Sequence record: PQ471516.1
Source: Escherichia phage Turkey5
DNA: 64,000 bases
Strand: one strand, 5' to 3'
This document shows, piece after piece, positions 58,500 through 61,552 of this stretch. Numbering within the stretch: position 1 is the stretch's first letter; every line of letters starts with the position of its first letter. The notes below the pieces were generated by a model that was given only the letters and a program-made list of their open reading frames with translations, ran no database searches and was not told the DNA's origin. The translations under genes and the position numbers were made by a program.

Positions 58500-59396
58500 T
58501 TATTTACCGGATATTACAACCTTGCCACTAAATGCAACATAGGATGTGAATATAACATTACCACTAGCATCAATTTGAGTTTCAGCAGTAACAGCTTCAA
58601 AAGGTGCAAGAGCAGTACTGCCTTGTACTTTATTACCGTATAGAGAAACGTATAGATTGTCAGGGGTTTGTTTATGATCTGCTGCTGGAATAGTTAGAGT
58701 GAATTGATCACCGGAAGCTACCCAATCAGCCTGATTAATAAGTTTACTGTATGGTACTGTCATAGTTGTTGCTCCTATAATATTAATTTTAACACTTGCG
58801 TATTCTGAAAGCTGACCAACTACTTCTAGAGTTATATCACCAATACCAGAAACTGTAACGTTAGTTTGGAATACAGAATCCAAATCGACATCACCTGGGT
58901 CACCTTGCAATTGAACCATAATATCAGCACCGCGACCATGAATAGATTCAGGAAGAGTGTATGTATATTTGTCAGATGAACCTGGCTCCAATACAAATGC
59001 TGAAACTGGAACAGTATGTGTGGTTACATAAGAACTATCACTACCAGGAGTAGATGATTTAAGTGGTTTCCATACACCAAGGTCTTTAATATAAATCTGA
59101 AGTGTATTTTCAGCATCAACTAGGAAATACACATCACCATCGGTTCCCAATGCATCAGCAGGAGCTACAGTACCGCGAAGAATACCACCAGCACCACCGC
59201 CACCATGTGCGTTTAAATATCCCAAGGTTACCAGATGGGTATTAGCTGTTGGGTCAGCCGCAGAAATTGGAAGAAGACCAGTTCCTGTATAGTTTTGAAT
59301 TTGCACAACACTACCATTCGTAGTGATTTGTGCACCATTTTTACCAAGTATGAAGGTCTTCTTCATGGTTCCTTCTAAATTAGAAAAAACTGCCAT
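58500..59396 (-). CDS. receptor-binding protein candidate with shared N-terminal module
   Basis: ATG at 59396 (minus) with GGAGA upstream; N-terminus MAVFSNLEGTMKKTFILGKNGA shared with the next gene. Confidence 0.5.
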   Translation of the reverse strand: MAVFSNLEGTMKKTFILGKNGAQITTNGSVVQIQNYTGTGLLPISAADPTANTHLVTLGYLNAHGGGGAGGILRGTVAPADALGTDGDVYFLVDAENTLQIYIKDLGVWKPLKSSTPGSDSSYVTTHTVPVSAFVLEPGSSDKYTYTLPESIHGRGADIMVQLQGDPGDVDLDSVFQTNVTVSGIGDITLEVVGQLSEYASVKINIIGATTMTVPYSKLINQADWVASGDQFTLTIPAADHKQTPDNLYVSLYGNKVQGSTALAPFEAVTAETQIDASGNVIFTSYVAFSGKVVISGK

Positions 59397-59410
59397 TTTA
59401 ATCATCTCCT

Positions 59411-61552
59411 TTATGATAGAGTTATATATGTTATTGGCTGTGCCGCTTTTAATAATGCACCTGCTGCTGTAGCAGTTACAATTGGGTCGGCAATGTCAAC
59501 GCGGTATGCGTTTGATACTACGTAAACTGCTCTGGTGATGTATGTTAATAAATCTTCACCATTTGCCCCAGCACCTGTAATGAGTATTTGTGTTCCAGCA
59601 GCTTTCGCATATTGGTTATCACCCCATGATACGCCTAACGCCTCTATATATGTTTGTCCTACAACCGTTTGTCGTATGGTGTCGTATTTTCCGAAGAAAG
59701 AACCACCAACTGTTACAATATATTTACTCCCTGACTGGTTGTGAATAATTGTACCTTGTGGGAAATAACGACCACCAGGGAACGTGTCATATGGAACATA
59801 ATATTGTTCAACTACAGGTATCAGTACTGGACCACGGTGACCAGTTCCGTCAATATCAGTTGGTACTTTAAAGTTGTTAGATGATTGGTCAATTCTATCC
59901 ACATACATTTTAGCAAAACTATATTTGGATATGTTACAATCATCTTGGACTACACAGTTTGTCCAGTTTGTATATGTATATTTAGAACGGGTATACAAAC
60001 CACCACCTTCACCTTCTGTTGACAAGTGTTGACCAATAACATCTAACTCTTTAGTGCGAATATCACTAAACTTAGAAGCTGATGGAAGACCACGCCATTG
60101 AATCTTAGTACAAGTTACATTTGATAATTCAGTATTGTTTGTCCAGTTATCAGAACAAGATGTATAAACTAAAATAGTTGATTCTGGAATATACAAATTA
60201 GATAATTTAAAGTTACGTGGAGGTCCAGCAAATTTACCAGAAGTTACACCCCAGTTTATAGAAACCATACGTGTAGTTACTGATGCGTCATTTAATAGAT
60301 GTCCAGTAAGACCATCGACAATAAAGTCTTTTGAACCATAAGTGATAACACCACAGGTAGTAAGGCCAGTACCAGTCGATACCAATGAGGATGGATATAC
60401 CTCGTTATCTAAAATTTTAAAATCTTTACCAACTTCAACGTGAATACACTGACGAACGTTATAAACTCTATTGTTTTTAATAACAAAGTTTTTAACATAT
60501 TGTGAATCAGGAGCATCAACGTCATATGGACCAGAACCCGCTACCCCAATTCCTATACCCCAGTTTGATAATGGGATTGGTGCATTAGTACCGTCAACGT
60601 TTTCAATAATATTTCCTTCAATTACAAAACCATCAGGATAATGAGAGTTGATAACGTTTAGTTCGATTGCATCCCCATAGATATCGTGAATATGGTTATA
60701 AGAATAACGCCCTACTGTCATTTTTTCACCCGTGCCTTGTTGAAGAACTCCATACTTACAAAGAGTCATTTCATTAAAGCAGAAATCAATAGTGCCAGTT
60801 TGAGTCATACCTTGCATTAAAAACGCAGCAGTACTGGTAATGTTTATAAATTTATTAAAATAAAATTTACCATCACCACCAAAGAATTTAAGATAACAAC
60901 CAGTTAATGTAGCAAATTGTATATGGCAGTTGATTACAGAAATCATAGTACCGCCGTTACCTGTTATTGTTCCACCAAACCAAGTTATATCTTCCAAGTA
61001 TAAGGCTGTTTTAATTCTATAATTACCTTTACCTTGAACTTGAATTTTATTCTCTTTTGCATATACTGCACAGGCATTTACTGCCGCAGTGTCATCTGTT
61101 TCACCATCACCTGCTGCCCCAAACTCTTCTGGAGTTACATAGAACTGTGCTTGTTGAAGTGTTCCTCCTGTTATCAATCCAATATAATCTCCTCCGTTAA
61201 CACTTGACAAAATATCTTTATTAACGTATAGTGATTTTACCCATTTACCATCAATTTTTAGAAATATATCAACAATCCCTTCACTGTTAGTTTGGAAATA
61301 TGTATAATTATTTTTACCGATATCATCTGAAGGGATGGCTTCACCAAACATTACGGTTGGGTGATCTTCTAGATACTTAACATTGACAGCAGAATCGGCA
61401 TCAACCGCAGACCCTACTTTAACTGGTAGAAATTTTTCACCAAATGAATCCTTTATTGAAATGGAATCATCTGAAAAACTAATCAAGGCTCCTTTTTTAC
61501 CAAGGATGAATGAGGGCTGCATGGTTCCTTCTAAATTAGAAAAAACTGACAT
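59411..61552 (-). CDS. tailspike-like protein, probable right-handed beta-helix
   Basis: ATG at 61552 (minus); N-terminus MSVFSNLEGTMQPSFILGKKGA; central Asn/Gly/Val-rich repeats typical of pectate-lyase-fold tailspikes. Confidence 0.5.
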   Translation of the reverse strand: MSVFSNLEGTMQPSFILGKKGALISFSDDSISIKDSFGEKFLPVKVGSAVDADSAVNVKYLEDHPTVMFGEAIPSDDIGKNNYTYFQTNSEGIVDIFLKIDGKWVKSLYVNKDILSSVNGGDYIGLITGGTLQQAQFYVTPEEFGAAGDGETDDTAAVNACAVYAKENKIQVQGKGNYRIKTALYLEDITWFGGTITGNGGTMISVINCHIQFATLTGCYLKFFGGDGKFYFNKFINITSTAAFLMQGMTQTGTIDFCFNEMTLCKYGVLQQGTGEKMTVGRYSYNHIHDIYGDAIELNVINSHYPDGFVIEGNIIENVDGTNAPIPLSNWGIGIGVAGSGPYDVDAPDSQYVKNFVIKNNRVYNVRQCIHVEVGKDFKILDNEVYPSSLVSTGTGLTTCGVITYGSKDFIVDGLTGHLLNDASVTTRMVSINWGVTSGKFAGPPRNFKLSNLYIPESTILVYTSCSDNWTNNTELSNVTCTKIQWRGLPSASKFSDIRTKELDVIGQHLSTEGEGGGLYTRSKYTYTNWTNCVVQDDCNISKYSFAKMYVDRIDQSSNNFKVPTDIDGTGHRGPVLIPVVEQYYVPYDTFPGGRYFPQGTIIHNQSGSKYIVTVGGSFFGKYDTIRQTVVGQTYIEALGVSWGDNQYAKAAGTQILITGAGANGEDLLTYITRAVYVVSNAYRVDIADPIVTATAAGALLKAAQPITYITLS

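Follow-up and report, generated by a model that had tools for sequence, protein, structure and literature searches.

Two adjacent genes on the minus strand of Escherichia phage Turkey5 (sequence record PQ471516.1), here called A and B, encode proteins that begin with a common module and have no detectable relationship downstream of it. Gene A (58500-59396; start ATG at 59396, stop at 58500) encodes a protein of 298 residues and 31 kDa, and gene B (59411-61552; start ATG at 61552, stop at 59411) encodes one of 713 residues and 78 kDa. Both were called as open reading frames (ORFs) with a ribosome-binding site, and all positions refer to the 64,000-nucleotide stretch of DNA that was analysed, termed the window. 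Judged by its sequence, protein A is a member of a catalogued Rak2-like core virion family (phrog_10468) with a kept position between the gp574-like and giant fibre genes. Protein B is, on the same basis, a chimera of a Rak2-type N-terminal module and a widely exchanged colanidase body. These homologies, together with the domain boundaries, gene order, and phyletic distribution described below, are probably best read as a conserved virion protein and a chimeric one that share a module docking them to the baseplate or tail, with B acting as a virion-mounted colanidase.

In mechanistic terms, the module would trimerize the protein that carries it and dock it at a conserved baseplate or tail site, and A would be the ancestral, conserved structural owner of the module. 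B would combine a diverged module copy with a colanidase body of the phi92 gp150/PBECO4 ORF547 type, an arrangement restricted to the Asteriusvirus lineage associated with Escherichia coli. Mounted on the virion, B could cut the colanic acid capsule, allowing the phage to reach outer-membrane receptors on mucoid cells. E. coli commonly becomes resistant to phages by overproducing colanic acid, and an intact, probably virion-mounted colanidase would be useful in the choice of cocktail phages and in enzyme mining.

The window derives from an E. coli jumbo myophage of the Rak2-like group, a JNE01-like member of Asteriusvirus. The locus region is 99.8% identical to that of Escherichia phage vB_EcoM_JNE01 (355 kb), compared with ~78% nucleotide identity to 121Q, PBECO4, G17, phAPEC6, and other Asteriusvirus jumbo myophages; the value for PBECO4 and 121Q assigns these two phages to a different lineage within the genus. 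The gene order is kept, running from a gp574-like 'tail protein' through the colanic acid-degrading protein (B) and the gp572-like virion protein (A) to one or more giant fibre genes.

The shared module and the chimeric gene B

The N-termini of the two proteins read MAVFSNLEGTMKKTFILGKNGA in A and MSVFSNLEGTMQPSFILGKKGA in B. An AGGAG at 59410-59406 lies 9 nt ahead of the A start codon, and a GGGGG at 61565-61561 lies 8 nt ahead of that of B. Longer versions of both ORFs in the mechanically produced list (MIKM.. and MIM..) were rejected because every orthologue starts MAVFSN or MSVFSN. From the resemblance of these beginnings, an initial annotation had proposed two receptor-binding proteins with a shared anchor and swapped distal domains. 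The N-terminal strings that it quoted and its coordinates for both genes are exact, and the similarity is significant. BLASTP aligns A with B at E = 3e-17 over about 110 N-terminal residues, and when either N-terminus is used as a phmmer query against the ORFs in all six frames of the window, the other copy is the sole match, at E ~1e-14. The same annotation had the proteins diverging completely after ~25 residues. The similarity in fact extends through a module of 112 residues in A and 107 in B, over which identity is 36%; divergence is complete from there on, in that no similarity between A and B is detectable past these points.

Three independent natural cases place the module boundary at the same point. 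The first is provided by module-only ORFs in Alcyoneusvirus, where RaK2 gp061 and K64-1 gp067 (115 residues each) are 54% identical to A over its residues 1-114 and stop at the boundary. The second is the junction with phi92 gp150, whose similarity to B opens at about B residues 100-108 (..KWVKSL/YVNKDILSS.., with the slash at the junction), where that between A and B stops. The third is a frameshift in JNE01-type relatives, which falls next to the boundary at B codon 120/121. The N-terminal cassette, with these natural boundaries, could serve to graft other depolymerases onto Rak2-like phages.

The reach of the module was defined by searching a two-module profile against 1.84 billion representative proteins, which gave 218 matches; word-indexed homologue searches with the module alone gave almost nothing, and an exhaustive hidden Markov model search was required. 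The matches reveal a composite of two parts, a ~65-residue element followed by one copy of a ~45-residue fibre repeat. In gene B these correspond to sub-module 1, the putative anchor proper (61358-61552, minus strand; residues 1-65), and sub-module 2, a single copy of the widespread repeat (61232-61357, minus strand; residues 66-107), and the A-type copy of the whole module occupies 59061-59396 on the same strand. Every match that aligns best to positions 1-65 carries the stretch at its own residue 1. These matches comprise A-type proteins, B-type proteins, and module-only ORFs, as well as proteins with other bodies. Residues M1, F4, S5, N6, E8, G9, T10, F15, L17, G18, K19, G21, A22, G38, and P43 are invariant across the A-, B-, and RaK2-type copies.

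Two of the proteins with other bodies have genes 6 kb apart on a single 120-kb contig of an uncultured phage (Logan SRR18476386; L020 8001-10343 and 16571-18343). One is a 780-residue spike (P0116) in which sub-module 1 is joined to a pectate-lyase-like beta-helix region and a Peptidase_S74 chaperone; the other is a 705-residue spike (P0118) with a Beta_helix domain. Both begin MAIFS.L.GTM.KIFKLGK.GA.., and to judge from their sequences the pair is an independent multi-spike use of sub-module 1. The contig also encodes NrdD and NrdG. Sub-module 1 is additionally present on proteins of 1200-1366 residues with Asp-box-like SxDxGxTW motifs, which were recognized by eye.

Sub-module 2, a beta-hairpin repeat, follows the pattern ..P..D.G..N.TYF......I.DIF.K..G.W. 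Long fibre-like proteins contain as many as 14 copies of positions 66-115 of the profile, and some of these proteins have weak collagen-repeat matches. Against Pfam the repeat gives only sub-threshold and inconsistent matches (DUF4988, Collagen, Flagellin_D3), and no model in the Pfam copy searched names it. The uncultured spikes have a precomputed match to PF27114 'Phage_tail_beta'; its absence from module-only proteins makes it unlikely to be the module.

AlphaFold2 predicts three strands and a short helix followed by a four-stranded unit for B residues 1-125 (predicted local distance difference test, pLDDT, 77.6). In A, residues 1-70 are poorly defined and residues 71-111 form a confident small beta unit. 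The predicted fold of sub-module 2 weakly resembles small trimerization domains. A structure search of the models found no fold similarity of the module to the CBA120 head/XD, T4 gp10, or P22 anchors, and the module profile matched no PDB chain by sequence. The module accordingly does not classify with the known attachment folds considered (CBA120 D1/D2/XD, T4 gp10-like, P22 head-binding, and the T7 gp17 N-terminus), and the CBA120 and T4 gp10-like anchors are not detectably related to it. No description of the module, of its module-only RaK2 form, or of the split allele discussed below was found in the literature searched.

Downstream of the module, the neck, catalytic body, and C-terminal domain of B (residues 108-713; 59414-61231, minus strand) are homologous to phi92 gp150. 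B matches phrog_6117 'colanic acid degradation' at E = 1e-253, and phmmer aligns its residues 100-712 with gp150 (PDB 6E0V/6E0W) at E = 9.9e-240. BLASTP gives 57% identity between B 90-713 and gp150 182-802, with strong similarity from YVNKDILSS onward, and finds no significant similarity between the first ~190 residues of gp150 and the B module. The chimeric nature of B is deduced from this pattern, because the phi92 similarity begins exactly where the A similarity ends and the N-terminus of gp150, ~190 residues of its own, differs from the 107-residue Rak2-type module. Homologues of the B body occur in 254 phage records from many unrelated genera. The body and C-terminal domain are homologous over their whole length not only to gp150 but also to colanidase tailspikes of Justusliebigvirus, Phapecoctavirus, Seunavirus, and several siphophages, at 28-59% identity.

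Closer than these are 121Q gp573 and PBECO4 ORF547 (AGC35227), direct orthologues of the same length (713 residues) and in the same gene order. Identity to these is 88% in the body and 67% in the module. By sequence, B falls in the colanidase tailspike family. The earlier view of the larger protein as a depolymerase tailspike is borne out both by its identity to phi92 gp150 (6E0V) and by this orthology to the PBECO4/121Q colanic acid-degrading protein. The substrate presumed to be common to B and colanidase tailspikes such as gp150 is colanic acid, which B would be predicted to hydrolyse. phi92 gp150 has been described as a colanidase tailspike, or CAE, and the bond that it reportedly cuts in colanic acid is the beta-1,4 Glc-Fuc linkage. 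For PBECO4 gp547, a passage in a review (PMC10059673) gives a likely polysaccharide-degrading function and credits Kim et al. 2015.

The body is predicted to be a right-handed parallel beta-helix, on the strength of the 57% identity to 6E0V and of the 'phi29 gp12-type' annotation in phi92. The match of B to the pectate-lyase-like family PF12708 is weak (E = 3e-4), its 21 bits falling short of the 27-bit cut-off. The Asn/Gly/Val-rich repeats attributed to B in the initial annotation are a loose description of its composition (Gly 10.8%, Val 8.0%, Asn 6.2%), sequence repeats as such not having been searched for. B also matches the WcaM model TIGR04004 (E = 4.5e-29), partially and far below the equivalog cut-off. 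By this match the body is distantly related to WcaM, a protein of the host colanic acid cluster, a kinship that explains the 'biosynthesis' mis-annotations.

Gene A and the giant fibres

Protein A matches phrog_10468 'virion structural protein' at E = 5.5e-89. It has 77 homologues of 284-309 residues and 36-99% identity, all but one of which (76) span the whole query. The isolated phages that match (71 records) are all Rak2-like, and their hosts are Escherichia, Salmonella, Cronobacter, Erwinia, Pectobacterium, Serratia, Yersinia, Xanthomonas, and Klebsiella (K. aerogenes). Full-length A is present across nearly all Rak2-like genera and at least 8 host genera, at 36-77% identity. Identity to 121Q gp572, GAP32 gp221, and CBB_227 is 51-77% over the full length, with the gene in the same position and no substantive difference between these proteins and A. 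The most conserved parts of A are its two ends, the start MAVFSNLEGTMKK.FILGKNG and the nearly invariant terminus ..SGKVVISGK. The orthologue CBB_227 was detected by mass spectrometry in CsCl-purified virions (5 peptides, 32% coverage).

The C-terminal region of A (residues 113-298; 58503-59060, minus strand), which ends SGKVVISGK, is largely beta-strand and was read as two beta-sandwich-like domains. An AlphaFold2 model of A built on a 41-sequence alignment has a mean pLDDT of 79.7, rising to ~90 in this mostly beta-strand region, and the distal region gives only generic beta-sandwich matches. No family in NCBIfam or Pfam matched A, and no published functional or structural description of the phrog_10468 family was found. 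A T4 gp9-like long-tail-fibre socket was considered and rejected, since the gp9 fold (N-terminal coiled coil, beta-sandwich, and C-terminal beta-barrel) was not recovered. The C-terminal region (residues ~111-298, ..GKVVISGK) also has a paralogue in which it is fused to an unrelated N-terminus of ~210 residues (121Q gp155-like; P0078). This paralogue, whose annotation is also that of a virion structural protein, is kept in 61 Rak2-like records; the JNE01 copy (OR670491 259977-261122) maps ~150 kb from the locus, outside the window.

Asteriusvirus records contain two module-bearing genes, A and B, and other Rak2-like genera contain one. In Alcyoneusvirus (RaK2 gp061, K64-1 gp067, and relatives) the module stands alone as a 115-residue ORF in the same slot after the gp574-like gene (L005 5001-5348 in RaK2 and L003 9001-9348 in K64-1). 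Full-length A occurs in 60 records, the giant-fibre N-terminus in 58, and the paralogue of the A C-domain in 61, in the same genera throughout; Alcyoneusvirus is without all three. In every locus inspected, a giant fibre gene lies directly downstream of A. Because the C-terminal region is conserved across host genera, and because A co-occurs with the giant fibre gene and directly precedes it, A is more likely to play a structural or adaptor role than to be a variable receptor binder.

These patterns also lend themselves to a tentative alternative, in which A is a baseplate adaptor or socket for the downstream giant fibres. Its N-module would sit in the baseplate and its C-region would grip the fibre, and B would borrow the N-module for an equivalent or competing site, giving an 'adaptor plus enzyme' arrangement. 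The co-occurrence by genus of full-length A, the giant-fibre N-terminus, and the C-domain paralogue, the retention of only the 115-residue module in Alcyoneusvirus, the fibre gene immediately downstream of A, and the strong conservation of both ends of A are all consistent with such a role. This is purely an argument from phyletic pattern and gene order, however, and a hairpin terminator stands between A and the fibre gene. The analysis marks gp572-like proteins as candidate adaptors in the baseplate and fibre architecture of jumbo phages such as Asteriusvirus and its relatives.

It is doubtful that A and B both act as genuine receptor-binding proteins, mounted on an adsorption apparatus that is branched or multi-spiked, with A binding a host surface structure, B binding colanic acid, and a wider host range as the outcome. 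The N-module common to the two proteins and the branched multi-depolymerase fibres built by related jumbo phages such as RaK2 would fit this arrangement. A is nevertheless conserved over its full length across host genera, including the distal end, which is atypical for a specificity determinant, and most genomes have a single module-bearing gene. Of the two proteins called receptor-binding in the initial annotation, B qualifies by homology as a depolymerase, and the role fits poorly with A, a conserved core protein whose nearly invariant C-terminus is the opposite of a host-range tip. The suggestion in that annotation of a broadened host range is not supported. Colanic acid is a general enterobacterial exopolysaccharide, so a B spike would remove a barrier without adding a serotype.

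A shared N-terminus with different distal parts is how multi-spike phages of the CBA120, K1-5, and RaK2 types are known to be organized, and is ordinary modular tailspike evolution; the anchor found here has no detectable relationship to the anchors of those phages. CBA120 TSP1-4, RaK2 gp526-gp534, and K64-1 S1/S2 have the same design, in which a conserved N-terminal part is combined with interchangeable distal enzymatic or binding parts. In contrast to those branched multi-tailspike systems, only two genes share the A/B module here, and in RaK2 itself the module homologue gp061, a module-only ORF, lies outside the described fibre set. The proposal of a shared anchor with swapped distal domains was accordingly right about the common module and the unrelated downstream parts. 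It needs qualification in that a swapped-in distal domain is present on B only, and in that most Rak2-like genera have a single module gene. Current understanding is not overturned by these relationships, which are useful for annotation and engineering.

The split allele and the location of B

The close relatives of the window differ from it at one informative position within gene B. After B codon 120 (between 61192 and 61193; coding strand AACGGA[C]GGAGAT, with the bracketed base marking the insertion), JNE01 and all six metagenomic or run-assembly contigs covering the site have an extra C, and the window is intact. The insertion splits B into a 141-residue ORF, consisting of the module plus 21 out-of-frame residues, and an overlapping 588-residue body ORF, which remains open in JNE01 and in each of the six contigs. 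Six SNPs are available within the split lineage. The exact 141-residue protein is encoded on 28 contigs, with four near-identical variants on 7 more; the intact 713-residue B of the window is absent from a collection of 15 billion proteins. The split-allele contigs are otherwise 97.9-99.98% identical to the window, all but one at 99.6% or more. Because the window agrees with the outgroups 121Q, PBECO4, and vB_Ec-M-J at both window-specific sites, and none of these has the extra C, it carries the ancestral, intact (fused) allele. That most sequenced close relatives have a split colanidase is relevant to the choice of cocktail phage or enzyme.

The split form may be a pseudogene that the phage tolerates, a spike made of two pieces, or a conversion to a free enzyme. 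Programmed frameshifting at AAC GGA C GG AGA was judged unlikely, as a +1 shift would be needed and the site contains no homopolymer or recognisable slippery sequence. A broader view of the module itself, which at present seems rather unlikely, is that it represents an undescribed autonomous attachment-plus-trimerization cassette of large phages, found alone, on A, and on enzymes. The insertion in the JNE01 lineage would then have created an anchor-only polypeptide together with an open, presumably functional, anchor-less enzyme, either soluble or part of a non-covalent two-piece spike.

We give little credence to the proposal that B is not virion-bound at all, with the module serving chiefly to nucleate folding or trimerization and lysis releasing the colanidase as a soluble enzyme. 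Such a function would account for the tolerance of a split that removes the module, and it is compatible with the 141- plus 588-residue arrangement in JNE01 and the six contigs, in each of which the body ORF is open, with the absence of B from the phAPEC6 virion table, with the weak likeness of sub-module 2 to trimerization domains, and with the purified PBECO4 enzyme, which is reported to work on its own; but the homologous phi92 body is annotated and discussed as a tailspike, sub-module 1 is found only at the N-termini of fibre- or spike-like proteins, the B gene lies among virion protein genes in the tail cluster, and A, with the same module, has a virion-detected orthologue in CBB_227.

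Several observations do weigh against a common docking module with B as a virion-mounted enzyme. In the nearest public relatives, anchor and enzyme are separate ORFs, and tolerance of the split there implies that a covalently anchored enzyme is not indispensable. Monomer AlphaFold2 models of residues 1-70 are of low to moderate confidence. The B module is 36-42% identical to A-type modules and 39-41% identical to the spike modules of uncultured phages. Being equally distant from both, it cannot be attributed to a recent in-lineage duplication of the A module rather than to acquisition from another module-bearing spike, and such a duplication is not established. RaK2 gp061 is mentioned in neither the RaK2 proteome paper nor the adsorption paper, and is not among the ten tail-fibre proteins of the latter.

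Direct evidence from virions is also uneven. The presumption in the initial annotation that both proteins are virion components is supported for A by way of CBB_227, and mass-spectrometry data yielded no virion evidence for B or any Asteriusvirus orthologue of it. The phAPEC6 virion proteome includes the flanking gp253 and gp256 without gp254 and gp255. The phAPEC6 record (MK817115; L007 6829-10034) has no coding sequence for the colanidase or the gp572-like gene (gp254 and gp255), though the DNA encodes both. With these coding sequences undeposited, the proteins may never have been searched for, and their absence from the proteome is uninformative. The tail-gene neighbourhood and the N-module favour the presence of B on the virion.

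Disruption of the colanidase gene, or sequencing error in it, seems to be frequent in deposited Asteriusvirus genomes. The vB_Ec-M-J gene (L001 18990-21132) is annotated as two coding sequences in different frames with a break near mid-body, and CMSTMSU and SD-1_S14 match the colanidase in two pieces. The papers on Sharanji and fEgEco12 do not mention a colanidase gene.

The surrounding locus

Upstream of B lies the gp574-like gene (61567-62694, minus strand), which encodes a 375-residue 'tail protein' (121Q gp574/CBB_228/phAPEC6 gp253). It matches phrog_13565 at E = 1.8e-209 over residues 49-423 of the longer ORF, and a short part of its sequence is a collagen-like Gly-X-Y stretch. Mass spectrometry of virions shows its orthologues to be abundant (phAPEC6 gp253 at 66% coverage; CBB_228), and the protein is a candidate partner for the shared module. 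Three internal repeats of the type FHIDS.GD..P....Y.FYNTTDGK.Y were spotted by eye. Their visual likeness to sub-module 2 was not substantiated, an hmmsearch with the module profile giving no significant match.

The gaps between the gp574-like gene and B and between B and A are 14 nt each. Directly after the stop codon of A, and ahead of the giant fibre gene, is a terminator-like hairpin (58465-58492, minus strand) with a perfect 10-bp stem and T-runs on both strands, which is likely to be a bidirectional intrinsic terminator. The annotations of phage G17 beneath the matched region include a 'terminator' feature. The short gaps and the hairpin suggest a single transcription unit, a short late operon in which the gp574-like gene, B, and A would be co-transcribed up to the terminator.

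Beyond the hairpin are two giant fibre genes on the minus strand (47000-53362 and 53501-58387), encoding proteins of 2120 and 1628 residues, respectively. Their first ~500 residues are 71% identical and the remainders differ, making them a second neighbouring gene pair in the window that shares an N-terminus. The number of giant fibre genes is one in 121Q and three in vB_Ec-M-J, and the fibre cluster is the variable part of the locus. Within 47000-58387, plus-strand ORFs of 100-438 residues run antisense to the giant fibre genes (54612-55928, for example); these most likely arise from the composition of the fibre genes, which is repetitive and biased, and are not real genes.

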